DNA of 27,865 nt from an uncultured Myxococcales bacterium (lineage in GTDB: Bacteria; UBA10199; 2-02-FULL-44-16; JAAZCA01): assembly GCA_964458295.1 (NCBI GenBank), contig CAYWIG010000001.1:1-27865 (forward strand), given 5' to 3'. How positions within the stretch are numbered: the stretch's first letter is position 1; each line of letters starts with the position of its first letter. This document shows, in pieces, positions 12,257-27,865 of this stretch. The notes beneath the pieces were generated by a model. It did not search any database and was not told where the DNA came from. It saw only the letters and a program-made list of their open reading frames with translations. The translations under genes and the position numbers were made by a program.

Positions 12257-12952
12257 TTAATCAAGACTGTGTGATATTGGTTTCTTCCACACAGATTTGA
12301 GTCCATCGATATGTTCAAAGAGCGTCTCATCGATATTCTGCCATAGCGGATCCAGTATGAAATCAATTCCCTCACGTCTAGCCACTTTCGCTGCCGGTAC
12401 AAAATCGCTATCACCCGAAACGAGGATAATTCTATCCACGAGATTTTTATAAGCGAGAGAAGCGATATCTATTCCTATGCGAAGATCTACACCTTTCTGT
12501 CTGATATCATATTTGAAATCTACGTCTTTGAGTTGACTGAACTCTGTTCTTCCCGAAAGTAGGTTTCTTAAAGACGCATTCTTTAAAGCCCACTTATTAT
12601 CGTCCTTTAGATGGCCTAATCGGAGCGCTACTTTTCTCTTTTTTTTCAATTCCTTTATGAATATAACTTTAAATGTATATAGATTGGATTTGGCAAAATT
12701 GGTGGCTTTCCTTGATATTGGAAGATGCGCCTTCTTCGTCAATGGTAAACAGTCATAATAAAAAATCCTGTACAGTTCGTTGAGACTTTTCAATTTGAGG
12801 TGATTCCTTCCGGTGTGCATCCCGACATGAGCGAGTGACATCCTGTATAATATATCCGCTACCTTCCTTGGGTCTTTTTCGAGTGGATTGCCGAAGAAAT
12901 GGGTATAACGATACAGAAAGAACGTGCCATCAATAAGGATTGCAACTTTCAT
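12257..12952 (-). CDS. NYN-domain (PIN-like, LabA/DUF88) putative ribonuclease
   Basis: VAILIDG, QKGVDLRIGIDIA, ILVSGDSDFVPA. Start at MKVAIL (12952) with GAGGGG 8 nt upstream. AT-rich relative to its neighbours. Confidence 0.85.
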   Translation of the reverse strand: MKVAILIDGTFFLYRYTHFFGNPLEKDPRKVADILYRMSLAHVGMHTGRNHLKLKSLNELYRIFYYDCLPLTKKAHLPISRKATNFAKSNLYTFKVIFIKELKKKRKVALRLGHLKDDNKWALKNASLRNLLSGRTEFSQLKDVDFKYDIRQKGVDLRIGIDIASLAYKNLVDRIILVSGDSDFVPAAKVARREGIDFILDPLWQNIDETLFEHIDGLKSVWKKPISHSLD

Positions 12953-12971
12953 CTTAAGAACCCTCAGAAAT

Positions 12972-13051
12972 AAAAAAAAGCCCCTGGGCTCGGCCACTCC
13001 GCTATTTCAGGAGGGGCGTACTGCCAGGGGCGGTATTTCTAATTTTTCCTA
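12972..13051 (-). ncRNA. Candidate structured leader/small RNA upstream of the NYN gene
   Basis: Minus strand: gcccctgg...ccaggggc (8-bp perfect stem) enclosing gcc-c-ctcc/ggag-t-ggc, followed by 8 T; TTGACA-16-TAATCT upstream (13085-13058). Confidence 0.5.
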
Positions 13052-13259: not shown

Positions 13260-14168
13260 ATGACCGATAAGAATAAGCAAAATAAGAAGAGGGGGAGCAC
13301 TTCACGAGAACTCGTCCGCCGCGATCCTCTGCAGAGTTATATGCAGGAGGTGAAGAACTATCCGATGCTCTCATTGGAGGAGGAGCATGAGTTGGCGAAG
13401 AAATTTCATGATGAAGGTGATCTCGAAGCTGCGAAGAAGCTAGTAGCGACACACCTTCGTCTGGTTGCGAAGATTGCGATGGAGTATCGAAGCGCCTATC
13501 ACAATGTCCTGGATCTCATTCAGGAGGGCAATGTTGGTCTTCTGCAGGCGGTCAAAAACTATGATCCAAAGAAGGGTGCCAGACTCGCCCATTATGCGAC
13601 GTGGTGGATCAAATCCTACATCTTAAAGTATATTCTAGATAACTTTCGCCTGATAAAGATCGGAACCACCAAGGAGCAAAAGAAGCTCTTCTACAATCTC
13701 ATGCGCGAGAAGGAGAAGATCGAGGCGATGGGATACTATGCAACACCTGTAGAGCTATCGAAGCGCCTTGGCGTCAGCGAAAAGGCCGTAGAGGAGATGC
13801 AGAAAAGGCTTACAGAGCCGGAATATGCCCTTGAAGCCCCAATTAAAGGCGACTCTGGCGATGGTGGGGCCATTCTAAAGGACTTCCTGCCGATCGACGA
13901 GATGCCTGTCGATGATAGAATAGCTGAACAGCAGACGCAGGATATCCTGAAACAGAAGTTTAAGGAGTTTTCGAAGTCACTCGATGACAGGGAGCTCAAG
14001 ATCTTCCAGGAGCGACTCCTTTCAGAACTTCCTTTAACACTTCAGGAAATTGCAGGTGAATATGGAATATCGAAGGAGAGGGTGAGGCAATTGGAGGAGC
14101 GCCTTATTAAGCGACTTAAGAAGTTTTTTAAGGATAGTGGTATTGAGGTGGAAGCACTTAAGATGTGA
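13260..14168 (+). CDS. rpoH: RNA polymerase sigma-32 family factor
   Basis: LRLVAKIA, DLIQEGNVGL, YATWWIK, RpoH-box-like TTKEQKKLFYNL, ISKERVRQLE. Confidence 0.88.
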   Translation: MTDKNKQNKKRGSTSRELVRRDPLQSYMQEVKNYPMLSLEEEHELAKKFHDEGDLEAAKKLVATHLRLVAKIAMEYRSAYHNVLDLIQEGNVGLLQAVKNYDPKKGARLAHYATWWIKSYILKYILDNFRLIKIGTTKEQKKLFYNLMREKEKIEAMGYYATPVELSKRLGVSEKAVEEMQKRLTEPEYALEAPIKGDSGDGGAILKDFLPIDEMPVDDRIAEQQTQDILKQKFKEFSKSLDDRELKIFQERLLSELPLTLQEIAGEYGISKERVRQLEERLIKRLKKFFKDSGIEVEALKM

Positions 14169-14205
14169 TTACTATCATTATATAGATGGGGAGATAAAAC
14201 AATAA

Positions 14206-14233
14206 ACCGGACATAATCTACCTACTCAGACAT
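14206..14233. other. Left junction: hybrid dif-like site (ACCGGACATAA TCTACC TACTCAGACAT)
   Basis: The 11-bp arm reads TTATGTCCGGT on the minus strand (XerD-arm-like) and marks the exact start of the duplicated unit. Confidence 0.55.
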
Positions 14234-14277
14234 CAAACAATAAAACAGGAGTAGGGGGCGTGAGGGGCGATTTAAAC

Positions 14278-14550
14278 TCAGGCAGCTTTGCCCTTAAATA
14301 CCACTTTTTCTAATTCCTCAAGTCGCTGAAGGATCCCTTTCTTATCATCGAGAAGAATATCTCTGAGTATTTTGTTTAGCAGCGTTTGATATTTTCCGCC
14401 GCTTTTCTCAGCCATTTCACGCAGAACCTCAAGCACCTCTTCATCCAGGTAGGTCGTCACCTTGATCTTTGAGCCTTTGAGTTCTTTCTTAGAGAGTTTG
14501 GGACCCTTTATTTTCTTCATCTTATCTGGATCAGGAATTTTCTTTTTCAT
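14278..14550 (-). CDS. brnA: BrnA-type (ribbon-helix-helix) antitoxin
   Basis: KVTTYLDEEVL..GKYQTLLNKILR; GGAGG before MKKK at 14550; overlaps the toxin gene. Confidence 0.8.
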   Translation of the reverse strand: MKKKIPDPDKMKKIKGPKLSKKELKGSKIKVTTYLDEEVLEVLREMAEKSGGKYQTLLNKILRDILLDDKKGILQRLEELEKVVFKGKAA

Positions 14551-14812
14551 AATATTTCCTCCATTTCCGCCAGTTCGCCGCACCATAAATTCTTATAACC
14601 TTCTTGCGGAAGGTGTATCGTACGGTAATAATATTTCCTGAAGTAACCTTACCCACGGCATAGAATCGATCCTCTTCGGAAGAGTGCTCCTCATCTTCGA
14701 GATGTATGACCTTGGGATCAGCAAAAACCTCCATGGCCTCGCGGAAATTGACGCCGTGCTTGGCTATGTTATCCAGTTCTTTCCGCTCATCCCATTCAAA
14801 CGTATAGCTCAT
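14531..14812 (-). CDS. brnT: BrnT-type toxin
   Basis: FEWDERKELDNIAKHGVNF, HSSEEDRFYAVG, TVRYTFR..IRIYGA. Confidence 0.88.
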   Translation of the reverse strand: MSYTFEWDERKELDNIAKHGVNFREAMEVFADPKVIHLEDEEHSSEEDRFYAVGKVTSGNIITVRYTFRKKVIRIYGAANWRKWRKYYEKENS

Positions 14813-14818
14813 GATCAT

Positions 14819-14857
14819 ATTATACATATATTATATGTATATTGTCAATATATATGT
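14819..14857 (-). promoter_or_regulatory. brnTA promoter with palindromic operators
   Basis: Minus strand TTGACA (14848-14843), 18 bp, TATAAT (14824-14819); overlapping palindromes tacatat-att-atatgta and tattg-t-caata. Confidence 0.7.
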
Positions 14858-15027
14858 AGAGTGATATGAAAGGACAGTTTAATAACTACATGATATTACT
14901 TGTATAAACATAAATGTACCCATAAGGTGGTTCTAAGAAGTAATTTTGCATGTAACTTAAAAAACGAGCAACAAATTTATGGAATGTGCGATAAAGGATA
15001 CAAATGTATGAATAAGAGGAGATGATT

Positions 15028-16083
15028 ATGAGCGGAGCTACAATTAATCCAGGATTACAATTCATTAATACGGCGGGTGTACCAGGGCTTGTTAGTGGCA
15101 TACAAACCGGTATGATTCAGCCGGCACAAACACTAACTGCATTTCAAGCGGTGGGGAGTGCAATCGATACATATGCTAGTGCATTTCCGCAGGATACAAC
15201 GCTCATGGGTTTGCGTGGCAATATCAGTGGGTTGCCAGCCAATCCACCCATCACTGCCCAGGCACAGGAACAGATTCTTGGTCAGCTAACTCAACATAAG
15301 GATGATGTAGAACTGGCAGTACGCATGGCCGTCAAGATAGGGAATGTAGGTCAGGTTGCAGTTACCGGTGGTGCGGCGTTGATAAATACAGAAGCACCTT
15401 ACGATCTCGGAGCCGAGTGGAGATGGATTCCTGCCGGAACATTTCAATTTGGTTCTGCAGATGATGATCAATACGCATATGATGCTGAAAAGCCACTAAG
15501 ACAGGTGATCGTAGGTGGTTTTTTTATGCTGGATCATCCTGTGACGAATAGAGAATGGATTGCATTTCTCGAGGCTACAGGGGAAAGGGATGAGCGAGAC
15601 ATTTCAAAGAAGTTTTCGGGACTCGATCAACCGGCGGTTTTGATCAATCATCCAGAGGCAAGCCGATATGCAGAGTGGCTAGGTTCGCAAGTAAGCGCAC
15701 AGGTAGAACAAAGCGTCATCGGACGGCTCCCAACTGAGCAGGAGTGGGAGAGGGCTGCCAAGGGTCCGGACGGAAATGAATTTATAACTCCAGCAACGAG
15801 CAGGCAAGCTCACTTCGATTCGGATAGAACGAGGGCGGTTACAGATCCCGAAGCATATGTAAATGGATTTGGACTGAAGGATATGATCGGTAACGTATGG
15901 GAGTGGACATCGAGCCCATGGGCAGAGGGATCGAGTGCGTTTGTGCTTCGCGGCGCCTCTTGGGACGACTATAGTCCTCAGTCTCTGCGTGCCGCTTTTC
16001 GCAACTTCAACATTCCGGACGATCGTTTCAGCTTTATCGGCTTCCGTCCGGTGCTGGTTCCCCAGGACCCGAAAAAAAGCTGA
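15028..16083 (+). CDS. DGR target protein 1: unknown N-terminal domain plus FGE-sulfatase/C-type lectin fold with C-terminal VR
   Basis: WIPAGTFQFGS, HPVTNREW, RLPTEQEWERAA, DMIGNVWEW, RGASW..R..GFR; AGGAG before ATG 15028. Confidence 0.93.
   Translation: MSGATINPGLQFINTAGVPGLVSGIQTGMIQPAQTLTAFQAVGSAIDTYASAFPQDTTLMGLRGNISGLPANPPITAQAQEQILGQLTQHKDDVELAVRMAVKIGNVGQVAVTGGAALINTEAPYDLGAEWRWIPAGTFQFGSADDDQYAYDAEKPLRQVIVGGFFMLDHPVTNREWIAFLEATGERDERDISKKFSGLDQPAVLINHPEASRYAEWLGSQVSAQVEQSVIGRLPTEQEWERAAKGPDGNEFITPATSRQAHFDSDRTRAVTDPEAYVNGFGLKDMIGNVWEWTSSPWAEGSSAFVLRGASWDDYSPQSLRAAFRNFNIPDDRFSFIGFRPVLVPQDPKKS
15945..16065 (+). repeat. DGR variable repeat VR1
   Basis: 121-bp ungapped match to TR 19761-19881; 16 mismatches, all opposite TR adenines. 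Confidence 0.97.
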
Positions 16084-16169
16084 TGTAGCCTTTTACCCTT
16101 TGCCTTTTTACCCTTATCCGGATTTAGTATTCCCGAGAAACGATGAGTTTCACTAAGGAGCGTCGGTTT

Positions 16170-16226
16170 ATGAAGCAGGGTGCACCTCAGGTCGTAACAT
16201 CGAAGTATGATCTTCTATGTGAGTAA
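16170..16226 (+). pseudogene. avd: Truncated avd remnant
   Basis: Reads MKQGAPQVVTSKYDLLCE* versus intact MRQGAPQIITSMYDLLLY; same TAAGGAG RBS and upstream spacer as the intact avd. Confidence 0.85.
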
Positions 16227-16248
16227 TGATTGTGAGGGAATATATTAT

Positions 16249-16276
16249 ACCAGACATAATGCACCTACTCAGACAT
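16249..16276. other. Internal dif-like cassette boundary (ACCAGACATAA TGCACC TACTCAGACAT)
   Basis: Both arms identical to those of the site at 20115; the 6-bp spacer differs. Confidence 0.55.
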
Positions 16277-16319
16277 CTAGAAATATAATGGGAGTAGGGG
16301 GGCTGAGAAGCTATTTAAA

Positions 16320-16637
16320 TCAAGCCACCTTCTGTGCATCGATTTCAACTTTGAGTTTTAATCCGAGAGCTTCCAGAAGGGCAAACAGTCTGTCGAGACG
16401 TGGGTTTCCTTTTTCGGAAAGAATCCTATACGCGGTTACGCGGTTGATATGCGCGTCCTTCGCCACCTTGGACATGCTGTATGCCTCTGCTACATGCCGA
16501 AGCGCGATGAGAAGGGCAACGGGATCATCAGATTCCTCAAGCGCTGCGTTGATATAGGATGCTGCCTCGTCAGGATCCTTTAATGATTCTATTAGATATT
16601 CGTTATAATCACCGCTTCTTTTTTTTGCCTTTGCCAT
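16320..16637 (-). CDS. Addiction-module antidote protein (HTH; HigA-like, HI1420 type)
   Basis: EYLIESLKDP..YINAALE, ALRHVAEA..MSKVAKDAHINRVTAYRILSEKGNPRL. Confidence 0.88.
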   Translation of the reverse strand: MAKAKKRSGDYNEYLIESLKDPDEAASYINAALEESDDPVALLIALRHVAEAYSMSKVAKDAHINRVTAYRILSEKGNPRLDRLFALLEALGLKLKVEIDAQKVA

Positions 16638-16956
16638 AGTTTACCTCCAAATAATCGGCCCAATATTTCTTGGCCTTGTTTATATCGTTCTTTTGTGTCC
16701 GTTTCGATCCACCACATAGCAAAAGGACTATCTGTTTTCCATCCCTTCCAAAGTACACCCTGTAACCGGGACCAATATGAATTCTGAGTTCGTTTATACC
16801 TTCAGCAATTGCTTTCGCATCGCCAAATAAGCCCAGTAAAAGACGATCGATGCGTACCTTGATAACAGCGCGTGTACGTGGATCTTTCAAACCTTCCAAC
16901 CAACTCAAAAATGGACTCTTTCCACTTTCCGTTCTGTAATAACGAATATCGATCAC
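16609..16956 (-). CDS. Addiction-module killer protein (RelE/ParE/HigB family toxin)
   Basis: F..WL..LKD..RIDRL..G.FGDAK...GINELRIHIGPGYRVYF, LLLCGGSKRTQKNDI; toxin lies upstream of antitoxin; GTG start. Confidence 0.9.
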   Translation of the reverse strand: MIDIRYYRTESGKSPFLSWLEGLKDPRTRAVIKVRIDRLLLGLFGDAKAIAEGINELRIHIGPGYRVYFGRDGKQIVLLLCGGSKRTQKNDINKAKKYWADYLEVNYGKGKKKKR

Positions 16957-16963
16957 ATTAAGG

Positions 16964-17018
16964 AGTGTAGCATATATGCAACATGTGAGTCAATATGATA
17001 ATGTTGCATATAGGCAAC
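16964..17018 (-). promoter_or_regulatory. TA promoter with two palindromic operators
   Basis: Minus strand TTGACT (16993-16988), 18 bp, TGn-TACACT (16969-16964); near-palindromes GTAGCATATATGCAAC (16967-16982) and GTTGCATATAGGCAAC (17003-17018). Confidence 0.65.
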
Positions 17019-17215
17019 GAATAAGGGTGCTTGCTTGCATTCGTTTGAATTAAAAGCTATGTGACAGATAACTAGCCGATATTATAAGGTAATTTGTGCA
17101 ATTGTTCGTGCAGGATCGTGTAGGGATGATTTTTGAGGTAAATGTTGAAAAATCGAGAAACTTTTTTAGGGAATGTGCGATAAACAGATGTTATTGGAAT
17201 TATACGGAGGTAGTT

Positions 17216-18292
17216 ATGACGGGAACTTCAATTAATCCAGGATTCAATCAAGCGTTTCAATTTATTCAAGGTGTGGGTGTGCCAGGTCTTGTGAGCGGAG
17301 TGAATACGATAATGACTCCCGCACAAACGCTAACCGCATTTCAAGCAGTGGGAAGTGCGATTGATACGTACGTGACGGCGTTTCCGCAGGATGGAACATT
17401 AGTCGGTCTGCGAAGCAGCATCAGTACCTTACCTGCTACGCCGCCTATTTCGGAGCAAGCACAGGAACAAATACTTGGCCAGCTAACTCAGCATAGTGAT
17501 GATGTAGAGTTGGCGGTGCGTATGGCTATCAAGGTAAATACCGTCGGTCAAATTGCGGTCACAGGTGGAGCGGCGACAGTAAATGTCGAAGCACCATTCG
17601 ATCTCGGAGCCGAGTGGAGATGGATTCCAGAAGGATCGTTTATGTTCGGTTCGGCCGACGACGATCCGTATGCATTCAATGATGAGAAACCACAGAGGAT
17701 GATGACTGTGGGTGGCTTTTTTATGTTGGACCATCCTGTCACTAATAAAGACTGGATCGCATTTCTTGAAGCGACAGGTGGAAAGGATGCGCGAGACCTT
17801 TTAGAAAAGTTTGCGGGAATGGATCAGCCGGCGGTTCGGATTAATCATACAGAAGCGAATCAATATGCCCGATGGATCGGTGAACAATTGAGCACAAGTA
17901 AAGGTCAAGCAGTTGCAGGGCGACTTCCGACAGAGATGGAATGGGAAAGGGCGGCCAAGGGACCTGGCGGAGACGAGTTTATAATTCCTGCAACAAGAGA
18001 TCAGGCACATTTCAATGCGGATGGAAAAACGGATAGAACGAGGGCGGTTACGCATCCAGACGTATACAGAAACGGATTTGGACTGGGGGATATTGAAGGA
18101 AATGTATGGGAGTGGACATCAAGCCCATGGGCCAAAGGGTCAGGAACTTTTGTGCTTCGCGGCGCCTCTTGGATCATCTATGATCCTCGGGATCTGCGTG
18201 CCGCTTGTCGCGGCTACAGCAATCCGGGCGCTCGTGACTGCTATTTCGGCTTCCGTCCGGTGCTGGTTCCCCAGGACCCGAAAAAAAGCTGA
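17216..18292 (+). CDS. DGR target protein 2 (paralog of target 1)
   Basis: Same domain layout as target 1; GGAGG at 17206-17210 supports ATG 17216 over the track's 17096. Confidence 0.93.
   Translation: MTGTSINPGFNQAFQFIQGVGVPGLVSGVNTIMTPAQTLTAFQAVGSAIDTYVTAFPQDGTLVGLRSSISTLPATPPISEQAQEQILGQLTQHSDDVELAVRMAIKVNTVGQIAVTGGAATVNVEAPFDLGAEWRWIPEGSFMFGSADDDPYAFNDEKPQRMMTVGGFFMLDHPVTNKDWIAFLEATGGKDARDLLEKFAGMDQPAVRINHTEANQYARWIGEQLSTSKGQAVAGRLPTEMEWERAAKGPGGDEFIIPATRDQAHFNADGKTDRTRAVTHPDVYRNGFGLGDIEGNVWEWTSSPWAKGSGTFVLRGASWIIYDPRDLRAACRGYSNPGARDCYFGFRPVLVPQDPKKS
18154..18274 (+). repeat. DGR variable repeat VR2
   Basis: 121-bp ungapped match to TR; 19 mismatches, all opposite TR adenines. Confidence 0.97.
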
Positions 18293-18379
18293 TGTAAACT
18301 TTTATCCTTTGCTTTTTTACACTTATCCGGATTTTCTATTCTCCGAGAAACGATGAGCTTCACTAAGGAGCGTCGAGTC

Positions 18380-18727
18380 ATGAGGCAGGGTGCACCTCAA
18401 ATTATAACGTCGATGTATGATCTTCTCCTATATCTTGTTCCACAAGTTTCTAAATTTCCAAAATCCCAGCGTTACCTTCTCGGTGAACGGCTGGAATCCG
18501 CGTGCTTCGATGTTCTCGAACTTCTGATCTCCGCGACATATTCTCAAGAGAAGATGCAGGTACTGAATAAGGCCAACATCAGACTCGAACAGGCCCGGTA
18601 CTATGTGAGGCTATGCAAGGATCTGAAACTCTTAAGTCTCCATCGATATGAGGTTGTATCAAAAAAGGTAAACGATGTGGGTGTGCAACTCGGCGGTTGG
18701 CTGAAATCCCAGAGACGGCGCAAATGA
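18380..18727 (+). CDS. avd: DGR accessory variability determinant (bAvd-like four-helix bundle)
   Basis: KFPKSQRYLLGERL, LEQARYYVRLCKDL, VGVQLGGWLK; TAAGGAG RBS; ATGA overlap with the RT gene. Confidence 0.92.
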   Translation: MRQGAPQIITSMYDLLLYLVPQVSKFPKSQRYLLGERLESACFDVLELLISATYSQEKMQVLNKANIRLEQARYYVRLCKDLKLLSLHRYEVVSKKVNDVGVQLGGWLKSQRRRK

Positions 18728-19737
18728 GGCGACATAAAAACCTTTATAAAGAGATAGCATCGTTTAGCAACCTCCTGAAAGCTGCGCGCCTTGCCCAGCG
18801 TGGAAAGCGATATAAAACACCTACGGCACACTTCAATTACTACCTCGAAAATGAATTGTGGCGTCTACATGAAGAATTGGCCACAAAGAAATATAAACCG
18901 GGAAAATATCATCACTTTACAATATATGAGCCAAAGCAGCGCGTGATCAGCGCAGCACCATATAGAGATCGTGTTGTTCATCACGCATTGCACAACGTGC
19001 TAGAGCCGATCTTCGATCCGACTTTCATCTACGATTCGTATGCCACGAGAAAAGGGAAGGGGACGCATGCGGCTCTGGACCGCTTTCAGAGTTTTTCTCG
19101 TCGGTGTAGTTATGCACTGAAGTGCGATATTCAGAAATACTTTCCGAGCATAGATCGTCAGATTCTTATTTCTTTGATCAAAAGAAAGATTGCGTGTGAC
19201 GATACGCTTTGGCTTATGGGTCGGATACTCGAATTTCACGATGGACCGGAAGTTGCGGACAGAGGGATTCCTATAGGGAATTTGACGTCACAGTTTTTTG
19301 CGAACATCTATCTCAACGGACTGGATCACTTCATTAAGCAGGATCTTGTCTGTTCCCATTATCTTCGATACATGGATGATTTTGTGATTTTCGATAACGA
19401 TAAGGATCGCCTTTGGTATCTAAAACAGCTGATCACGGATTATGTTGAAAAACTCAGTCTTCGCCTGCATTCTGATAAATGCTGCGTTTATAAGACATCG
19501 GCAGGTGTTCCTTTTTTTGGTATGATAATCTTTCCGGAACGGCGTCGTCTCAAACGTCAGAATGTGATTAGATTTAAACGTCGATTGAGAAAGTTTCAGC
19601 GAGAATATGAAAATGGCGATGTTAGTTGGGCGCATATCAATCAATCCATTCAATCTTGGATAGGGCATGCTTTGCATGCTGAGACTGCACGTTTGAGAGG
19701 GGATATTTTGTCGAATACAGTCTTTAGAAAGGGGTGA
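18724..19737 (+). CDS. DGR reverse transcriptase
   Basis: KQRVISAAPYRDRVVHHAL, LKCDIQKYFPSI, GIPIGNLTSQFFANIYL (SQ motif typical of DGR RTs), YLRYMDDF; about 337 aa with no maturase or endonuclease domain. Confidence 0.96.
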   Translation: MRRHKNLYKEIASFSNLLKAARLAQRGKRYKTPTAHFNYYLENELWRLHEELATKKYKPGKYHHFTIYEPKQRVISAAPYRDRVVHHALHNVLEPIFDPTFIYDSYATRKGKGTHAALDRFQSFSRRCSYALKCDIQKYFPSIDRQILISLIKRKIACDDTLWLMGRILEFHDGPEVADRGIPIGNLTSQFFANIYLNGLDHFIKQDLVCSHYLRYMDDFVIFDNDKDRLWYLKQLITDYVEKLSLRLHSDKCCVYKTSAGVPFFGMIIFPERRRLKRQNVIRFKRRLRKFQREYENGDVSWAHINQSIQSWIGHALHAETARLRGDILSNTVFRKG

Positions 19738-19760
19738 TCGATCACAGTAAACGGGTTCCA

Positions 19761-19881
19761 GCTTCGCGGCGCCTCTTGGAACAACAATAATCCTCAGAAT
19801 CTGCGTGCCGCTTATCGCAACAACAACAATCCGGACGAACGTAACAACAATATCGGCTTCCGTCCGGTGCTGGTTCCCCAG
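19761..19881 (+). ncRNA. DGR template repeat (TR)
   Basis: Non-coding, 24 nt after the RT stop; 12 AAY codons in target frame; matches both VRs except at adenines. Confidence 0.96.
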
Positions 19882-20029
19882 CACCCCAAGGTGCAATCTT
19901 GCAGGCCAGAGTCCTTTTTTTTAAGGAAACGGGGAGAGTGTTCCGTAGAGTTTTCTGCGGGACGTGCCAGCGAGGGGTCCAGGTCGATCATCCCGGTTTG
20001 CCAAAATAGGTGGGCCAAAGATAGCGGGG

Positions 20030-20090
20030 CTCCATCCGTCACTCGTAACTGCATATCCAATGTAGCGAGCGTGATGGATGGGGATTTTTT
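20030..20090 (+). terminator. Long hairpin plus T-tract ending the putative DGR RNA
   Basis: ctccatccgtcac...ctgcat-atcca-atgtag...gtgatggatgggg followed by atttttt. Confidence 0.65.
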
Positions 20091-20114
20091 AAGGTTCGAC
20101 AATAGACATGTTAT

Positions 20115-20142
20115 ACCAGACATAATCTACCTACTCAGACAT
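20115..20142. other. Unit junction dif-like site (ACCAGACATAA TCTACC TACTCAGACAT)
   Basis: Sits exactly at the copy 1 / copy 2 junction. Confidence 0.55.
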
Positions 20143-20186
20143 CAAACAATAAAACAGGAGTAGGGGGCGTGAGGGGCGATTTAAAC

Positions 20187-20459
20187 TCAGGCAGCTTTGC
20201 CCTTAAATACCACTTTTTCTAATTCCTCAAGTCGCTGAAGGATCCCTTTCTTATCATCGAGAAGAATATCTCTGAGTATTTTGTTTAGCAGCGTTTGATA
20301 TTTTCCGCCGCTTTTCTCAGCCATTTCACGCAGAACCTCAAGCACCTCTTCATCCAGGTAGGTCGTCACCTTGATCTTTGAGCCTTTGAGTTCTTTCTTA
20401 GAGAGTTTGGGACCCTTTATTTTCTTCATCTTATCTGGATCAGGAATTTTCTTTTTCAT
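20187..20459 (-). CDS. brnA: BrnA-type antitoxin, copy 2
   Basis: Identical to 14278-14550. Confidence 0.8.
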   Translation of the reverse strand: MKKKIPDPDKMKKIKGPKLSKKELKGSKIKVTTYLDEEVLEVLREMAEKSGGKYQTLLNKILRDILLDDKKGILQRLEELEKVVFKGKAA

Positions 20460-20721
20460 AATATTTCCTCCATTTCCGCCAGTTCGCCGCACCATAAATT
20501 CTTATAACCTTCTTGCGGAAGGTGTATCGTACGGTAATAATATTTCCTGAAGTAACCTTACCCACGGCATAGAATCGATCCTCTTCGGAAGAGTGCTCCT
20601 CATCTTCGAGATGTATGACCTTGGGATCAGCAAAAACCTCCATGGCCTCGCGGAAATTGACGCCGTGCTTGGCTATGTTATCCAGTTCTTTCCGCTCATC
20701 CCATTCAAACGTATAGCTCAT
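20440..20721 (-). CDS. brnT: BrnT-type toxin, copy 2
   Basis: Identical to 14531-14812. Confidence 0.88.
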   Translation of the reverse strand: MSYTFEWDERKELDNIAKHGVNFREAMEVFADPKVIHLEDEEHSSEEDRFYAVGKVTSGNIITVRYTFRKKVIRIYGAANWRKWRKYYEKENS

Positions 20722-20936
20722 GATCATATTATACATATATTATATGTATATTGTCAATATATATGTAGAGTGATATGAAAGGACAGTTTAATAACTACAT
20801 GATATTACTTGTATAAACATAAATGTACCCATAAGGTGGTTCTAAGAAGTAATTTTGCATGTAACTTAAAAAACGAGCAACAAATTTATGGAATGTGCGA
20901 TAAAGGATACAAATGTATGAATAAGAGGAGATGATT

Positions 20937-21992
20937 ATGAGCGGAGCTACAATTAATCCAGGATTACAATTCATTAATACGGCGGGTGTACCAGGGCTTG
21001 TTAGTGGCATACAAACCGGTATGATTCAGCCGGCACAAACACTAACTGCATTTCAAGCGGTGGGGAGTGCAATCGATACATATGCTAGTGCATTTCCGCA
21101 GGATACAACGCTCATGGGTTTGCGTGGCAATATCAGTGGGTTGCCAGCCAATCCACCCATCACTGCCCAGGCACAGGAACAGATTCTTGGTCAGCTAACT
21201 CAACATAAGGATGATGTAGAACTGGCAGTACGCATGGCCGTCAAGATAGGGAATGTAGGTCAGGTTGCAGTTACCGGTGGTGCGGCGTTGATAAATACAG
21301 AAGCACCTTACGATCTCGGAGCCGAGTGGAGATGGATTCCTGCCGGAACATTTCAATTTGGTTCTGCAGATGATGATCAATACGCATATGATGCTGAAAA
21401 GCCACTAAGACAGGTGATCGTAGGTGGTTTTTTTATGCTGGATCATCCTGTGACGAATAGAGAATGGATTGCATTTCTCGAGGCTACAGGGGAAAGGGAT
21501 GAGCGAGACATTTCAAAGAAGTTTTCGGGACTCGATCAACCGGCGGTTTTGATCAATCATCCAGAGGCAAGCCGATATGCAGAGTGGCTAGGTTCGCAAG
21601 TAAGCGCACAGGTAGAACAAAGCGTCATCGGACGGCTCCCAACTGAGCAGGAGTGGGAGAGGGCTGCCAAGGGTCCGGACGGAAATGAATTTATAACTCC
21701 AGCAACGAGCAGGCAAGCTCACTTCGATTCGGATAGAACGAGGGCGGTTACAGATCCCGAAGCATATGTAAATGGATTTGGACTGAAGGATATGATCGGT
21801 AACGTATGGGAGTGGACATCGAGCCCATGGGCAGAGGGATCGAGTGCGTTTGTGCTTCGCGGCGCCTCTTGGGACGACTATAGTCCTCAGTCTCTGCGTG
21901 CCGCTTTTCGCAACTTCAACATTCCGGACGATCGTTTCAGCTTTATCGGCTTCCGTCCGGTGCTGGTTCCCCAGGACCCGAAAAAAAGCTGA
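20937..21992 (+). CDS. DGR target protein 1, copy 2
   Basis: Identical translation to 15028-16083. Confidence 0.93.
   Translation: MSGATINPGLQFINTAGVPGLVSGIQTGMIQPAQTLTAFQAVGSAIDTYASAFPQDTTLMGLRGNISGLPANPPITAQAQEQILGQLTQHKDDVELAVRMAVKIGNVGQVAVTGGAALINTEAPYDLGAEWRWIPAGTFQFGSADDDQYAYDAEKPLRQVIVGGFFMLDHPVTNREWIAFLEATGERDERDISKKFSGLDQPAVLINHPEASRYAEWLGSQVSAQVEQSVIGRLPTEQEWERAAKGPDGNEFITPATSRQAHFDSDRTRAVTDPEAYVNGFGLKDMIGNVWEWTSSPWAEGSSAFVLRGASWDDYSPQSLRAAFRNFNIPDDRFSFIGFRPVLVPQDPKKS
21854..21974 (+). repeat. VR1, copy 2
   Basis: Identical to 15945-16065. Confidence 0.95.
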
Positions 21993-22078
21993 TGTAGCCT
22001 TTTACCCTTTGCCTTTTTACCCTTATCCGGATTTAGTATTCCCGAGAAACGATGAGTTTCACTAAGGAGCGTCGGTTT

Positions 22079-22135
22079 ATGAAGCAGGGTGCACCTCAGG
22101 TCGTAACATCGAAGTATGATCTTCTATGTGAGTAA
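22079..22135 (+). pseudogene. avd: Truncated avd remnant, copy 2
   Basis: Identical to 16170-16226. Confidence 0.85.
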
Positions 22136-22157
22136 TGATTGTGAGGGAATATATTAT

Positions 22158-22185
22158 ACCAGACATAATGCACCTACTCAGACAT
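22158..22185. other. Internal dif-like cassette boundary, copy 2
   Basis: Identical to 16249-16276. Confidence 0.55.
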
Positions 22186-22228
22186 CTAGAAATATAATGG
22201 GAGTAGGGGGGCTGAGAAGCTATTTAAA

Positions 22229-22546
22229 TCAAGCCACCTTCTGTGCATCGATTTCAACTTTGAGTTTTAATCCGAGAGCTTCCAGAAGGGCAAACAGTCT
22301 GTCGAGACGTGGGTTTCCTTTTTCGGAAAGAATCCTATACGCGGTTACGCGGTTGATATGCGCGTCCTTCGCCACCTTGGACATGCTGTATGCCTCTGCT
22401 ACATGCCGAAGCGCGATGAGAAGGGCAACGGGATCATCAGATTCCTCAAGCGCTGCGTTGATATAGGATGCTGCCTCGTCAGGATCCTTTAATGATTCTA
22501 TTAGATATTCGTTATAATCACCGCTTCTTTTTTTTGCCTTTGCCAT
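22229..22546 (-). CDS. Addiction-module antidote protein, copy 2
   Basis: Identical to 16320-16637. Confidence 0.88.
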   Translation of the reverse strand: MAKAKKRSGDYNEYLIESLKDPDEAASYINAALEESDDPVALLIALRHVAEAYSMSKVAKDAHINRVTAYRILSEKGNPRLDRLFALLEALGLKLKVEIDAQKVA

Positions 22547-22865
22547 AGTTTACCTCCAAATAATCGGCCCAATATTTCTTGGCCTTGTTTATATCGTTCT
22601 TTTGTGTCCGTTTCGATCCACCACATAGCAAAAGGACTATCTGTTTTCCATCCCTTCCAAAGTACACCCTGTAACCGGGACCAATATGAATTCTGAGTTC
22701 GTTTATACCTTCAGCAATTGCTTTCGCATCGCCAAATAAGCCCAGTAAAAGACGATCGATGCGTACCTTGATAACAGCGCGTGTACGTGGATCTTTCAAA
22801 CCTTCCAACCAACTCAAAAATGGACTCTTTCCACTTTCCGTTCTGTAATAACGAATATCGATCAC
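22518..22865 (-). CDS. RelE/HigB-family toxin, copy 2
   Basis: Identical to 16609-16956. Confidence 0.9.
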   Translation of the reverse strand: MIDIRYYRTESGKSPFLSWLEGLKDPRTRAVIKVRIDRLLLGLFGDAKAIAEGINELRIHIGPGYRVYFGRDGKQIVLLLCGGSKRTQKNDINKAKKYWADYLEVNYGKGKKKKR

Positions 22866-23124
22866 ATTAAGGAGTGTAGCATATATGCAACATGTGAGTC
22901 AATATGATAATGTTGCATATAGGCAACGAATAAGGGTGCTTGCTTGCATTCGTTTGAATTAAAAGCTATGTGACAGATAACTAGCCGATATTATAAGGTA
23001 ATTTGTGCAATTGTTCGTGCAGGATCGTGTAGGGATGATTTTTGAGGTAAATGTTGAAAAATCGAGAAACTTTTTTAGGGAATGTGCGATAAACAGATGT
23101 TATTGGAATTATACGGAGGTAGTT

Positions 23125-24201
23125 ATGACGGGAACTTCAATTAATCCAGGATTCAATCAAGCGTTTCAATTTATTCAAGGTGTGGGTGTGCCAGGTCTTG
23201 TGAGCGGAGTGAATACGATAATGACTCCCGCACAAACGCTAACCGCATTTCAAGCAGTGGGAAGTGCGATTGATACGTACGTGACGGCGTTTCCGCAGGA
23301 TGGAACATTAGTCGGTCTGCGAAGCAGCATCAGTACCTTACCTGCTACGCCGCCTATTTCGGAGCAAGCACAGGAACAAATACTTGGCCAGCTAACTCAG
23401 CATAGTGATGATGTAGAGTTGGCGGTGCGTATGGCTATCAAGGTAAATACCGTCGGTCAAATTGCGGTCACAGGTGGAGCGGCGACAGTAAATGTCGAAG
23501 CACCATTCGATCTCGGAGCCGAGTGGAGATGGATTCCAGAAGGATCGTTTATGTTCGGTTCGGCCGACGACGATCCGTATGCATTCAATGATGAGAAACC
23601 ACAGAGGATGATGACTGTGGGTGGCTTTTTTATGTTGGACCATCCTGTCACTAATAAAGACTGGATCGCATTTCTTGAAGCGACAGGTGGAAAGGATGCG
23701 CGAGACCTTTTAGAAAAGTTTGCGGGAATGGATCAGCCGGCGGTTCGGATTAATCATACAGAAGCGAATCAATATGCCCGATGGATCGGTGAACAATTGA
23801 GCACAAGTAAAGGTCAAGCAGTTGCAGGGCGACTTCCGACAGAGATGGAATGGGAAAGGGCGGCCAAGGGACCTGGCGGAGACGAGTTTATAATTCCTGC
23901 AACAAGAGATCAGGCACATTTCAATGCGGATGGAAAAACGGATAGAACGAGGGCGGTTACGCATCCAGACGTATACAGAAACGGATTTGGACTGGGGGAT
24001 ATTGAAGGAAATGTATGGGAGTGGACATCAAGCCCATGGGCCAAAGGGTCAGGAACTTTTGTGCTTCGCGGCGCCTCTTGGATCATCTATGATCCTCGGG
24101 ATCTGCGTGCCGCTTGTCGCGGCTACAGCAATCCGGGCGCTCGTGACTGCTATTTCGGCTTCCGTCCGGTGCTGGTTCCCCAGGACCCGAAAAAAAGCTG
24201 A
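23125..24201 (+). CDS. DGR target protein 2, copy 2
   Basis: Identical translation to 17216-18292. Confidence 0.93.
   Translation: MTGTSINPGFNQAFQFIQGVGVPGLVSGVNTIMTPAQTLTAFQAVGSAIDTYVTAFPQDGTLVGLRSSISTLPATPPISEQAQEQILGQLTQHSDDVELAVRMAIKVNTVGQIAVTGGAATVNVEAPFDLGAEWRWIPEGSFMFGSADDDPYAFNDEKPQRMMTVGGFFMLDHPVTNKDWIAFLEATGGKDARDLLEKFAGMDQPAVRINHTEANQYARWIGEQLSTSKGQAVAGRLPTEMEWERAAKGPGGDEFIIPATRDQAHFNADGKTDRTRAVTHPDVYRNGFGLGDIEGNVWEWTSSPWAKGSGTFVLRGASWIIYDPRDLRAACRGYSNPGARDCYFGFRPVLVPQDPKKS
24063..24183 (+). repeat. VR2, copy 2
   Basis: Identical to 18154-18274. Confidence 0.95.
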
Positions 24202-24288
24202 TGTAAACTTTTATCCTTTGCTTTTTTACACTTATCCGGATTTTCTATTCTCCGAGAAACGATGAGCTTCACTAAGGAGCGTCGAGTC

Positions 24289-24636
24289 ATGAGGCAGGGT
24301 GCACCTCAAATTATAACGTCGATGTATGATCTTCTCCTATATCTTGTTCCACAAGTTTCTAAATTTCCAAAATCCCAGCGTTACCTTCTCGGTGAACGGC
24401 TGGAATCCGCGTGCTTCGATGTTCTCGAACTTCTGATCTCCGCGACATATTCTCAAGAGAAGATGCAGGTACTGAATAAGGCCAACATCAGACTCGAACA
24501 GGCCCGGTACTATGTGAGGCTATGCAAGGATCTGAAACTCTTAAGTCTCCATCGATATGAGGTTGTATCAAAAAAGGTAAACGATGTGGGTGTGCAACTC
24601 GGCGGTTGGCTGAAATCCCAGAGACGGCGCAAATGA
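24289..24636 (+). CDS. avd: Avd, copy 2
   Basis: Identical to 18380-18727. Confidence 0.92.
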   Translation: MRQGAPQIITSMYDLLLYLVPQVSKFPKSQRYLLGERLESACFDVLELLISATYSQEKMQVLNKANIRLEQARYYVRLCKDLKLLSLHRYEVVSKKVNDVGVQLGGWLKSQRRRK

Positions 24637-25646
24637 GGCGACATAAAAACCTTTATAAAGAGATAGCATCGTTTAGCAACCTCCTGAAAGCTGCGCGCCT
24701 TGCCCAGCGTGGAAAGCGATATAAAACACCTACGGCACACTTCAATTACTACCTCGAAAATGAATTGTGGCGTCTACATGAAGAATTGGCCACAAAGAAA
24801 TATAAACCGGGAAAATATCATCACTTTACAATATATGAGCCAAAGCAGCGCGTGATCAGCGCAGCACCATATAGAGATCGTGTTGTTCATCACGCATTGC
24901 ACAACGTGCTAGAGCCGATCTTCGATCCGACTTTCATCTACGATTCGTATGCCACGAGAAAAGGGAAGGGGACGCATGCGGCTCTGGACCGCTTTCAGAG
25001 TTTTTCTCGTCGGTGTAGTTATGCACTGAAGTGCGATATTCAGAAATACTTTCCGAGCATAGATCGTCAGATTCTTATTTCTTTGATCAAAAGAAAGATT
25101 GCGTGTGACGATACGCTTTGGCTTATGGGTCGGATACTCGAATTTCACGATGGACCGGAAGTTGCGGACAGAGGGATTCCTATAGGGAATTTGACGTCAC
25201 AGTTTTTTGCGAACATCTATCTCAACGGACTGGATCACTTCATTAAGCAGGATCTTGTCTGTTCCCATTATCTTCGATACATGGATGATTTTGTGATTTT
25301 CGATAACGATAAGGATCGCCTTTGGTATCTAAAACAGCTGATCACGGATTATGTTGAAAAACTCAGTCTTCGCCTGCATTCTGATAAATGCTGCGTTTAT
25401 AAGACATCGGCAGGTGTTCCTTTTTTTGGTATGATAATCTTTCCGGAACGGCGTCGTCTCAAACGTCAGAATGTGATTAGATTTAAACGTCGATTGAGAA
25501 AGTTTCAGCGAGAATATGAAAATGGCGATGTTAGTTGGGCGCATATCAATCAATCCATTCAATCTTGGATAGGGCATGCTTTGCATGCTGAGACTGCACG
25601 TTTGAGAGGGGATATTTTGTCGAATACAGTCTTTAGAAAGGGGTGA
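24633..25646 (+). CDS. DGR reverse transcriptase, copy 2
   Basis: Identical to 18724-19737. Confidence 0.96.
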   Translation: MRRHKNLYKEIASFSNLLKAARLAQRGKRYKTPTAHFNYYLENELWRLHEELATKKYKPGKYHHFTIYEPKQRVISAAPYRDRVVHHALHNVLEPIFDPTFIYDSYATRKGKGTHAALDRFQSFSRRCSYALKCDIQKYFPSIDRQILISLIKRKIACDDTLWLMGRILEFHDGPEVADRGIPIGNLTSQFFANIYLNGLDHFIKQDLVCSHYLRYMDDFVIFDNDKDRLWYLKQLITDYVEKLSLRLHSDKCCVYKTSAGVPFFGMIIFPERRRLKRQNVIRFKRRLRKFQREYENGDVSWAHINQSIQSWIGHALHAETARLRGDILSNTVFRKG

Positions 25647-25669
25647 TCGATCACAGTAAACGGGTTCCA

Positions 25670-25790
25670 GCTTCGCGGCGCCTCTTGGAACAACAATAAT
25701 CCTCAGAATCTGCGTGCCGCTTATCGCAACAACAACAATCCGGACGAACGTAACAACAATATCGGCTTCCGTCCGGTGCTGGTTCCCCAG
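25670..25790 (+). ncRNA. DGR template repeat, copy 2
   Basis: Identical to 19761-19881. Confidence 0.96.
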
Positions 25791-25938
25791 CACCCCAAGG
25801 TGCAATCTTGCAGGCCAGAGTCCTTTTTTTTAAGGAAACGGGGAGAGTGTTCCGTAGAGTTTTCTGCGGGACGTGCCAGCGAGGGGTCCAGGTCGATCAT
25901 CCCGGTTTGCCAAAATAGGTGGGCCAAAGATAGCGGGG

Positions 25939-25999
25939 CTCCATCCGTCACTCGTAACTGCATATCCAATGTAGCGAGCGTGATGGATGGGGATTTTTT
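25939..25999 (+). terminator. Hairpin plus T-tract, copy 2
   Basis: Identical to 20030-20090. Confidence 0.65.
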
Positions 26000-26023
26000 A
26001 AGGTTCGACAATAGACATGTTAT

Positions 26024-26051
26024 ACCAGACATAATATATCTTATACGTCTT
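26024..26051 (-). other. Complete dif-like XerC/XerD site (minus strand AAGACGTATAA GATATA TTATGTCTGGT)
   Basis: 11-6-11 layout with ATAA-n6-TTAT core; 17/28 identical to E. coli dif by my alignment; marks the island's right end. Confidence 0.65.
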
Positions 26052-26144: not shown

Positions 26145-27865
26145 ATGAGTAAGGCAGCAGCGACCGTGATTGATCTAAAAAAGCCTGATAATACAGGTGA
26201 TTATGATACATCGGGGCTCTCAAAGGAGCTAGCGAAGACGATCTCCCTTTTCATGTCACACCAGCGTTCAGACGGATATTGGTGGTACACCCTTGAGGCC
26301 AACGAGACGATCGGTACCGAATTTATCCTCCTGATGCACTATCTGGGCATGGTCGATAGTGAGATGTTGGAAGGCATCAAGAATCGAATACTCGATGTCC
26401 AACGCTCCAACGGCACCTGGGCGATCTATCATGACGGTCCGCCGGAGCTTTCGACAACTATAGAATGCTACTGGGCCCTTAGAATCGCTGGCGTCCCACC
26501 GGATGCTGAGAATATGGTCAAGGCACGTCATTACATCCTCGAACATGGCGGAATCGAAAAGGCACGCGTATTTACGAAGATCCATCTTGCGATGTTCGGC
26601 ATAGTACCCTGGAGCGCATGTCCAAACATGCCTAGCTGGTTTATCCACTTCCCACGATGGTTTTCTTTTAACATCTACGAATTCTCTAGTTGGGCGCGGG
26701 CTACGATCGTACCGCTCCTGATCTTCATGTCGGTCAAGAAGACGAAGAAAGCTCCGAAGAATATAATGCTGGAGGAGCTATTCTGTCATCCACCGGATCA
26801 TAGGTTCTACACATATCCGGCGGATCATGATCTATTCTCCTGGGAGAGCTTCTTCATCTATTCAGATAAAGCTTTAAAGATTTTTGATAAAATACCTTTA
26901 AAGCCACTACGTAAACTCTCGATAAATAAGTGTGCAAAGTGGACTTGGGAACATGTCGCAAAGACTGAGGACATATATCCGGCACTCGCTTACTGTGCGC
27001 TCGCATTCAAGGCCATGGATTACAGCAATGAATCTCCGCAGATCAAGAAACCCTTCGAGGCCTTAAAGATGTTCCAACAGCGTTATGCGACTTTAGATGT
27101 CCCCGCCTGTCCGGATGAAATCAAGGATGACACAAAGACCGTTCCATCAAAACTTCGTGAGATCGGAATCGACCCGCTTGTAAAACGAAGCGATGGTCAC
27201 AGGATCCATCAACAGTGTTGTATATCTCCACTCTGGGACACGCCTTGGATGGTCATGTCGCTTTTGGAAGCGGGTGTTCCGAAAGATGATCCCGCCCTAC
27301 TCCGTGCTGGACGTTGGCTGATCGGGAAGCAGATAAGGGAGACGCGCGGTGACTGGTCTATTAAAAATAGAAAGGCGAAACCTGGCGGTTGGGCGTTTGA
27401 ATTTGAAAATGACTACTTTCCAGACGTAGATGATACGATTGAAATCCTAAGCGTCATCGATCGCCTGGATATTCCCGAAGATGAGAAGAAGGAAACGGTT
27501 AAGCTCGGTTTGGACTGGCTGCTTTCGATGCAGAATTACGATGGTGGCTGGGGCGCTTTCGATACGGATCAAAAGCAGGAGCTGGTCATTCGAATCCCAT
27601 TCTCCGATCACAAGGCGTGTATGGATCCGTCGACTCCGGATATAACTGGTAGAATGATTGAGTACCTTTCAACCCAGGGTTACGACCGAAATCATCCCGT
27701 AATCAAACGTGCACTGAATTTTATATGGCAAACACAAGAGAAGTTCGGCGGATGGTTCGGTAGATGGGGAGTGAATTACCTCTATGGGACATGGAATGTT
27801 CTCATGGGACTTGGCGCACTCGGCTTCGATCCATCCGATGATAGAATATCCAGGGCGCTTAACTG
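26145..27865 (+). CDS. shc: Squalene-hopene cyclase, 3' partial (absent from the ORF track, probably because there is no stop in the window)
   Basis: GGAGG then ATG 26145; translates to QRSDGYWWYTLEANE, GGWAFEFENDYFPDVDDT (DXDD motif), QNYDGGWGAFD, WFGRWGVNYLYGTW. Confidence 0.93.
   Translation, partial: MSKAAATVIDLKKPDNTGDYDTSGLSKELAKTISLFMSHQRSDGYWWYTLEANETIGTEFILLMHYLGMVDSEMLEGIKNRILDVQRSNGTWAIYHDGPPELSTTIECYWALRIAGVPPDAENMVKARHYILEHGGIEKARVFTKIHLAMFGIVPWSACPNMPSWFIHFPRWFSFNIYEFSSWARATIVPLLIFMSVKKTKKAPKNIMLEELFCHPPDHRFYTYPADHDLFSWESFFIYSDKALKIFDKIPLKPLRKLSINKCAKWTWEHVAKTEDIYPALAYCALAFKAMDYSNESPQIKKPFEALKMFQQRYATLDVPACPDEIKDDTKTVPSKLREIGIDPLVKRSDGHRIHQQCCISPLWDTPWMVMSLLEAGVPKDDPALLRAGRWLIGKQIRETRGDWSIKNRKAKPGGWAFEFENDYFPDVDDTIEILSVIDRLDIPEDEKKETVKLGLDWLLSMQNYDGGWGAFDTDQKQELVIRIPFSDHKACMDPSTPDITGRMIEYLSTQGYDRNHPVIKRALNFIWQTQEKFGGWFGRWGVNYLYGTWNVLMGLGALGFDPSDDRISRALN

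Follow-up and report, generated by a model that had tools for sequence, protein, structure and literature searches.

We have analyzed a contig of 27,865 nucleotides (CAYWIG010000001.1, here C1), which contains an island formed by a diversity-generating retroelement (DGR) together with toxin-antitoxin (TA) pairs. The window is the whole of this contig. It belongs to G000, a 2.13-Mb metagenome-assembled genome (MAG) of an uncultured marine bacterium, assembled in 371 contigs of the short-read type. Relatives of this host lineage are recorded as Deltaproteobacteria or Bdellovibrio-like MAGs. The island is almost certainly built from dif half-sites, as can be read directly from its sequence, and the 28-mer which closes it on the right is very probably the dif site of the host lineage, where chromosome dimers are resolved. 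The explanation we prefer is that the DGR island was built inside dif by Xer-type recombination, which is likely, and so is, taken by itself, the role of Xer as the catalyst. Present-day mobility of the cassettes is rather doubtful. The first-pass annotation of this sequence had proposed an Xer-mobilized DGR array stabilized by TA pairs, an interpretation which our results support as a hypothesis.

The arm ACCRGACATAA is found on the plus strand at 14206, 16249, 20115, 22158 and 26024. When one mismatch is allowed, the window contains seven matches, while 0.79 are expected, and none of 100 shuffled sequences reaches seven; outside the window there is no copy in the whole of the G000 genome. 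The first-pass annotation had placed these five sites at cassette boundaries. They are real, unique to this contig and all of them coincide with module boundaries, but two of them are copies inside a tandem repeat of 5,909 bp: Positions 14203-20111 are identical to 20112-26020 except for two differences, at 14205 and 14209. Therefore, instead of five independent sites, there are three distinct ones (the left junction, the internal junction and dif) and a hybrid junction between the units. These sites and the genes which flank them are:

13260..14168, plus strand: gene for an rpoH-like sigma factor, the left chromosomal flank (Sigma70 r1.2, r2, r3 and r4 domains).
14206..14233, plus strand: left hybrid site, with arm ACCGGACATAA, spacer TCTACC and degenerate arm TACTCAGACAT, the sole copy with G at arm position 4.
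16249..16276, plus strand: internal hybrid site between cassettes 1 and 2, with ACCAGACATAA, TGCACC and TACTCAGACAT.
20112..26020, plus strand: second copy of the 5,909-bp unit, with its internal site at 22158.
20115..20142, plus strand: unit-to-unit junction, in which an A-type arm with its TTAT flank (right end) is joined to TCTACC and the degenerate arm (left end); a putative attP or tandem junction.
26024..26051, minus strand: very probable chromosomal dif, with AAGACGTATAA (putative XerC arm), GATATA and TTATGTCTGGT (putative XerD arm), assigned from copy number, GC skew, a position weight matrix (PWM) and similarity to the Geobacter site.
26145..27863, plus strand: gene for squalene-hopene cyclase (shc; protein SHC), the right chromosomal flank (SQHop_cyclase_N and _C).

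All junctions follow the same rule: The invariant arm ACCAGACATAA plus a T is followed by an element-specific spacer and the degenerate arm TACTCAGACAT. Module boundaries read TTAT-ACCAGACATAAT. All sites are direct, on the plus strand, and only one arm is recognizable at the element sites. The left junction is covered by a contig from the public sequencing run X5 (13819-14239), with 0 differences. We can place the exchange point somewhere from arm position 4 to the second spacer base, because only the left junction has G and the unit junction has an A-type arm. This arm/spacer border is the predicted cleavage position of a recombinase bound to that arm. At the recent junction, the identity available for homologous exchange amounts to 8 bp if it is perfect (GACATAAT), or 12 bp with one mismatch. 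The right ends of cassette 1 and of the whole unit have only TTAT and the arm in common.

The 28-mer at 26024-26051 has an 11-6-11 layout with partly inverted arms (inner ATAA/TTAT), four of the six inner pairs being complementary. It is present as a single copy in G000. Its 24-nt core, searched with up to three mismatches, is found in exactly one copy in 9 of the 22 genomes of the order, which belong to two families, and in none of the 71 other genomes of the class; reversed-pattern controls gave 0 matches. All nine genomes have the same arm ACCAGACATAA, and the outer bases of the other arm vary. In comparison with this invariant arm, the SHC proteins of the same genomes are merely 56-70% identical. 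The XerD arm of published dif sites is better conserved than the XerC arm (PMC2731167), so the invariant arm is probably the XerD arm, and we regard the shared arm as more likely to be this one than the XerC arm. The 28-mer shares 21 of 28 bases with the published Geobacter dif, and its central hexamer plus TTATGT is identical to the Geobacter and Syntrophus sites.

GC skew changes from positive to negative at the site in three relatives (G010, G005 and G013), at contig scale. The maximum of cumulative GC skew is 50 bp from the site in a 71-kb contig and 90 bp from it in a 108-kb stretch, which come from two relatives. In G010 this maximum is 2.2 kb away, at the far end of shc, and in G005 the sign of the skew holds within genes of both orientations. 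The dif PWM comes exclusively from 12 dif sites in the paper of Carnoy and Roten (PMC2731167). Of the 4.2 million G000 positions scored with it, the site, on the minus strand, ranks fourth. The first-pass annotation had suggested such a search for the host dif, and 26024-26051 comes out as the best candidate: It is single-copy and nearly invariant across two families, it has a skew switch in three relatives and the fourth PWM rank, and there is no conserved rival.

Other candidates for dif have been discarded. Two of the PWM hits above the site are within open reading frames (ORFs) of 272-283 amino acids. The third one, at C12:1745, is intergenic, but it is absent from all 21 relatives, including the congener, and has no skew switch. 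The canonical proteobacterial dif core (ATAA-N6-TTATGT-N-AA) is absent from four of five near-complete relatives, and the single match, found in G003, is at chance level.

The tandem repeat may also be examined in the Logan contigs, which are a separate assembly of public reads. Runs X1 and X4 come from two studies, possibly with related samples, and both contain a 1,515-nt contig which joins 20118 back to 14210 (5909 backwards). The junction molecule exists. The first-pass annotation had proposed to look for excised circles in the reads: The unit-to-unit junction was found, and a tandem copy would explain it as well as a circle would. Run X5 contains the left junction and a loose end which reads into dif and shc. 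Overall, the unit is about 1.5-2.5 times as deep as its flanks; X1 and X4 give a ratio of about 2.5 and runs X2 and X5 one of about 1.3-1.8, at low depth. These values are depths and not copy numbers.

We infer that two identical copies are what an assembler yields on walking a simple loop once; therefore, the number of copies in the contig is not evidence. The tandem may thus be a product of the assembly, by minimal traversal of a loop in a de Bruijn graph, in which case there would be a single unit in the chromosome, and a minority circle or tandem would account for the junction reads. This is a serious possibility, somewhat short of an even chance. The genome is a MAG of the short-read type in many contigs, and the copies are 100% identical even in their hypervariable regions, while the reads show another allele of one of them, as described below. 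X2 and X5, with their lower depth ratio, have no junction contig. On the other hand, a separate assembler gives the junction contig in two runs in which the unit is about 2.5 times as deep as the flank. Since the junction molecule exists anyway, an assembly product would affect how many copies there are, but not what the element is.

The interval between rpoH and shc is empty or differently filled in relatives, with boundaries exactly on the repeats (G010, G016, G018 and G001), as could be expected from the first-pass annotation, which had suggested this comparison. Nothing interrupts this interval in other genera of the family; in G010, for instance, rpoH, ACCAGACATAATATTTCTTATACGTC and shc follow each other. 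The shc orthologues adjoin the 28-mer in most relatives; this is the case of G005, G009, G016, G018 and G020, where the site is mostly 40-120 bp upstream of shc. The rpoH-like gene is directly upstream of the site or of shc in G010, G009, G016, G018 and G020.

A single cassette is found between rpoH and shc in the congener G001, whose SHC is 88% identical. It starts with ACCAGACATAAT and a leader element as in G000. In the slot of the G000 TA pairs, G001 has a reverse-strand gene (L013:5827-6831) for a 334-aa Fic/DOC protein with a C-terminal winged helix. It is accompanied by an orthologous DGR target, 79% identical to target 1 of G000, after which comes a shorter remnant of the accessory gene avd. 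The right end of the cassette reads TTAT-ACCAGACATAAT-ATATCTTATACG, which is an intact dif. From the fillings of G000 and G001 it follows that the species differ by whole modules with ends on half-sites. Neither a reverse transcriptase (RT) nor a template repeat (TR) is detectable in G001, and its variable repeat (VR) has two non-adenine changes. From its sequence, this cassette looks like an orphan. The cassette-start pattern gave 0 matches in the JGI metagenomes.

In G016 (L021:1417-1526) there is an inverted half-site (ACCAGACATAA TATAAA, with the same 6-bp flank) 55 bp from dif, which may be the scar of another Xer event. In G005 (L015:1960-2800) a methyltransferase-like ORF is found between rpoH and dif, with no recognizable second half-site.

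A different history could be considered for these fillings: one ancient insertion beside dif, followed by ordinary rearrangement, that is, RecA-dependent unequal crossing-over or replication slippage on short repeats, deletion and gene replacement. The half-sites would simply be inherited, with no role for Xer and no mobility. This agrees with the confinement of the cassettes to one genus and with the GC content of the island, which resembles that of the host. The VR of G001 is drifting, as it would after a simple deletion. Moreover, cassettes 1 and 2 are paralogous over the target and the leader, and the duplication behind this could have included the internal site. Nevertheless, we consider this history unlikely. 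The island is exactly within the 28-mer, with its break at the arm/spacer border, and three junction types break at one nucleotide. The 8 bp of perfect identity are far too short for efficient RecA recombination. What the right end of cassette 1 shares with the unit end fits a site-specific break, not a longer block.

The first-pass annotation had also noted that the island contains no integrase. We agree: The PF00589 tyrosine recombinase family has no match in the window, all four matches in the genome being on other contigs, and the ORFs of the island are TA pairs, targets, Avd, RT or have no family in Pfam or NCBIfam. The host recombinases whose presence it asked about are found elsewhere. 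XerC of G000 is an equivalog match (343 bits, the cut-off being 335), and a XerD-like ORF, truncated by the end of its contig, has 311 bits over 235 amino acids. All 22 genomes of the order have XerD and a paralogue, with XerD above the cut-off in 19 of them. A third Xer-like tyrosine recombinase is found in G000 on contig C261 (L030:1453-2388), with 244 bits to XerC, below the cut-off.

It would be possible for a dedicated recombinase encoded elsewhere to use a target which overlaps dif. G000 has two tyrosine recombinases beyond XerC and XerD, the C261 paralogue and a 356-aa integrase on contig C166, and there is a precedent in insertion sequences (IS), some of which target dif and pdif sites (PMC10132070). 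We find this very unlikely. Neither enzyme is linked to the island, and the motif is absent near the C261 and C166 genes. G001 has the same boundaries, but no paralogue scoring like the C261 recombinase was found there: Its extra matches have 86 and 38 bits on the XerD model, versus 241 for C261. Finally, the idea that the 28-mer is a promoter or operator of shc, or a terminator of rpoH, where the island merely landed between genes, has in its favor the short distance to shc in most relatives, but it is hardly credible: The site has an 11-6-11 architecture, a dif-like PWM score and a place at the GC-skew maximum, other phyla have the same core in unrelated surroundings, and G003 (where the site is on another contig than shc, among other genes, with neither shc nor rpoH within 1.5 kb) and G013 (where it is 1.5 kb from shc) uncouple it from shc, so it is not simply a control element of this gene.

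According to the Xer explanation, the invariant dif arm and one further base (ACCAGACATAA-T, or TTATGTCTGGT in minus-strand reading, probably the XerD arm) would be copied at the start of each module, and an intact dif would be regenerated at the end of the array nearest to shc. A recombinase bound to the shared arm would carry out a single strand-pair exchange between dif and the attP of the element, after which replication would resolve the Holliday junction, as happens in the integrative mobile elements exploiting Xer (IMEX). Cassette 1 would be the older module, common with G001 and now served in trans, while cassette 2, nearer to dif, would supply the TR and the RT for both targets. Recombination of the left hybrid site with dif, between sister chromosomes or by excision and re-integration, would give the unit-to-unit junction, as a tandem copy, a 5.9-kb circle, or both. 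The TA pairs would penalize module loss. In short, host Xer recombinases probably load, duplicate and lose the cassettes. The anatomy of the island, the dif attributes of the 28-mer, the empty and different fillings in relatives, the junction in the reads and the signs of DGR activity are observations. Catalysis by XerC/XerD, the protein bound by each arm and the role of the TA pairs are what we infer from the arrangement.

Several points weigh against this explanation. Much of what is seen could be due to vertical inheritance and local rearrangement. The cassettes are found only in one genus, in G000 and G001, and horizontal mobility is not supported. No replication, phage, satellite or conjugative genes are found in the 5.9-kb unit among the Pfam and NCBIfam assignments, so the element has no evident means of its own for passing between cells. 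Neither an empty-site contig nor an unambiguous circle has been seen in the reads. As to the sites, the second arm of the element sites (ATGTCTGAGTA, minus strand) agrees with the XerC arm of dif at about 5 of 11 positions, and the inner ATAA is lost. The outer half of the putative XerD arm (CTGGT) does not have the conserved A25 of the proteobacterial consensus, and the PWM score of the site, 17.6, is below those of the training sites (25-40). The right flank of G000 is too short for a GC-skew test, and placement at the terminus is at contig scale, in relatives. The case for Xer binding or catalysis at the 28-mer and the hybrid sites is made from sequence.

We may tentatively go one step further, although this is perhaps asking too much of the data: The cassettes might represent an undescribed class of very small non-replicative Xer elements, a sort of mini-IMEX, with a perfect XerD arm and a vestigial XerC arm, in which a XerD-first exchange at the division septum would load, amplify and shed DGR targets and RT at dif. 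If this were true, the chromosome terminus would be an expandable platform for hypervariable binding proteins, guarded by TA pairs, whose copy number varies between natural populations.

The 5,909-bp unit is a full DGR, with two targets of the formylglycine-generating enzyme (FGE)/C-type-lectin kind, the accessory protein bAvd, an RT and a TR, plus BrnT/BrnA and HI1419/HI1420 TA pairs. Cassette 1 (14206-16248) has BrnA and BrnT in reverse, target 1 with its variable repeat VR1, and a 5' remnant of avd; it is without an intact avd, RT or TR. Cassette 2 (16249-20114) has the HI1419/HI1420 pair in reverse, target 2 with VR2, bAvd, RT and TR. This plan, TA genes in reverse and DGR genes forward, had already been recognized in the first-pass annotation, and the Pfam and NCBIfam content agrees with it. 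The features of the first copy of the unit are:

14203..14280, plus strand: cassette-start element of about 78 bp (shared arm and non-coding leader up to the antitoxin stop codon), 79% identical to 16246-16322.
14278-14586, minus strand: BrnA antitoxin (Pfam BrnA_antitoxin, 31.1 bits).
14531-14827, minus strand: BrnT toxin (Pfam BrnT_toxin, 71.8 bits).
15022..16083, plus strand: DGR target 1, with an FGE-sulfatase/C-type-lectin fold (PF03781, E 5e-41) and VR1 at 15945-16073.
16133..16216, plus strand: remnant of the avd upstream region and first codons, 87% identical to 18343-18426.
16320-16637, minus strand: HI1420-type helix-turn-helix antitoxin (TIGR02684, 61 bits, above the cut-off; Pfam dnstrm_HI1420).
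16609-16956, minus strand: HI1419-type RelE/ParE toxin (TIGR02683, 123 bits, above the cut-off).
17096..18292, plus strand: DGR target 2 (PF03781, E 1e-34), with VR2 at 18154-18282.
18353..18727, plus strand: bAvd accessory protein (PF22296, 72 bits).
18697..19737, plus strand: DGR reverse transcriptase (PF00078, 80 bits).
19761..19889, plus strand: TR, which aligns with VR1 and VR2, the differences being almost only at TR adenines.

Cassettes 1 and 2 have the start element of about 78 bp and the target region in common, yet their TA pairs are unrelated. The start element recurs in G001 at L013:5757-5826. Homology in the avd remnant stops about 30 bp short of the next site, at 16249. Two ORFs, 19812-20123 on the minus strand and 16207-16557 on the plus strand, have no Pfam or NCBIfam family and have been treated as non-coding or overlapping. 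A hairpin in the cassette leader (CCTACTC/GAGTAGG) was considered as a conserved structure and rejected: It folds with z-scores of about -1 on either strand, and G001 does not keep the stem.

The features which define a DGR are all present: an RT of the RVT_1 family, bAvd, and TR/VR pairs with adenine-specific differences. VR1 has 18 differences with the TR, 16 of them at TR adenines, and VR2 has 21, with 19 at TR adenines. The two non-adenine differences are common to VR1 and VR2 and are found at the 3' end. Away from the adenines the VRs match the TR perfectly, though the target genes are only about 75% identical overall, so a single RT/TR serves both targets. In the public reads (runs X1 and X4) there is an alternative VR2 allele, a 587-nt contig with 21 substitutions, all at 18173-18245 within VR2. 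From this second allele, DGR diversification appears to be active in the natural population.

IMEX elements integrate by a single strand-pair exchange resolved by replication, and their arrays grow at the dif-proximal end (PMC9226527). The junctions of our island look like the traces of such an exchange. Like CTXphi, VGJphi and TLCphi of Vibrio cholerae, the gonococcal genetic island and Legionella LME-1, our island is inserted in a chromosomal dif and has no recombinase of its own (PMC9226527, PMC9765430). In both cases one end has a regenerated dif and the other a hybrid site, the modules follow each other in direct orientation in an order which reflects their history, and the element site has one good arm plus the adjacent spacer base of dif (PMC9226527, PMC9765430). 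The IMEX analogy drawn in the first-pass annotation holds in all these respects.

There are also differences with IMEX. The cargo of the island is a DGR and TA pairs, rather than a phage, a satellite or a secretion island, and modules of 2-4 kb combine into a composite unit of 5.9 kb. There are no replication, morphogenesis or transfer genes, and we found no candidate for an XafT-like activator in the island. Unlike TLCphi, the island keeps an apparent XerD arm and has a degenerate XerC arm, which is the reverse design. Even so, the IMEX class is the best fit among the known systems.

The pdif modules of Acinetobacter are found on plasmids, each between two full XerC/XerD sites which are inverted with respect to each other. 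In contrast, the sites in our island are all direct, with one recognizable arm, and the array is at the chromosomal terminus. Both have small non-autonomous modules with Xer-like boundaries and TA pairs, which are frequent in pdif modules (PMC5790767, PMC7399989). Nevertheless, the analogy with these modules made in the first-pass annotation fails, because of the direct orientation of the sites and the quality of the arms. Sedentary chromosomal integrons with TA cassettes also resemble the island, as an array of modules, with or without promoters, in the same orientation with interspersed TA pairs that could stabilize it. Unlike them, the island has no integron integrase (IntI) nearby and no attC R'/R'' boxes. 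In fact, we have rejected a reading of its sites as integron attC sites: There are no core sites (R'' RYYYAAC, R' GTTRRRY), no significant fold and no IntI.

The island shares with the DGRs of integrase-type islands, prophages and plasmids the set of target, bAvd, RT and TR, the adenine-specific differences and the presence of two targets per TR. What sets it apart is the carrier, which consists here of dif half-site cassettes. In metagenomes there are target-avd-RT loci whose RTs are 73% and 65% identical to that of the island. The locus with the 65% identical RT, L112, is an 11-kb island (L112:2226-13334) flanked by exact direct repeats of 31 nt; one repeat overlaps a tRNA-Gly gene at its 3' end. 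Judging from this sequence, it is a classical integrase-type island, in contrast to the dif arrangement. Seven of 80 related metagenome loci were examined, including the closest, and none has the arm; L110 and L112 have no comparable flanking site. The exact sequence of the RT is not on record in public assemblies. The first-pass annotation knew of no DGR organized as Xer/dif cassettes, and a literature link between DGRs and dif, Xer or IMEX was likewise not found in the library we searched.

DGRs travel on phages, plasmids and integrase-type islands. If our explanation is true, a DGR in recombinase-free dif cassettes would add another way for hypermutation systems to be gained, copied and lost. 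The IMEX concept, which covers phages and large islands, would then include small cargo modules too, here in an uncultured marine lineage. A known kind of mobile element would have a new design, both in its cargo and in its sites. The combination of a kept XerD arm and a degenerate XerC arm is a natural test case for how much of dif is needed by Xer recombination.

The analysis also defines the dif of this lineage, and its TTATGTCT-type core is found in Aminicenantes and Fidelibacterota as well. Read on the minus strand, GTCGCATAA-GATATA-TTATGTCTACT is present in MAGs of these two groups and in a Eubacteriales MAG (L054, L057, L059, L061, L065 and L069). It is probably the dif of these MAGs, with the TTATGTCT arm type in common with the host lineage. 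The presence of this core in other phyla, with a canonical-looking XerC arm (GTCGCATAA), suggests that the TTATGTCT-type dif variant is widespread.

A Margulisiibacteriota MAG (L055, L056, L063, L067 and L068) contains a dif-like core, AGACATAATATTTCTTATGCG, six times, with two kinds of conserved flanks. Two of the copies are inverted, 470 bp apart. They may be dif modules or a repeat element which ends in a dif-like site. In the window itself, the left flank of the island is otherwise co-oriented, its sole reverse-strand gene being one for an NYN-domain protein at 12257-12997.

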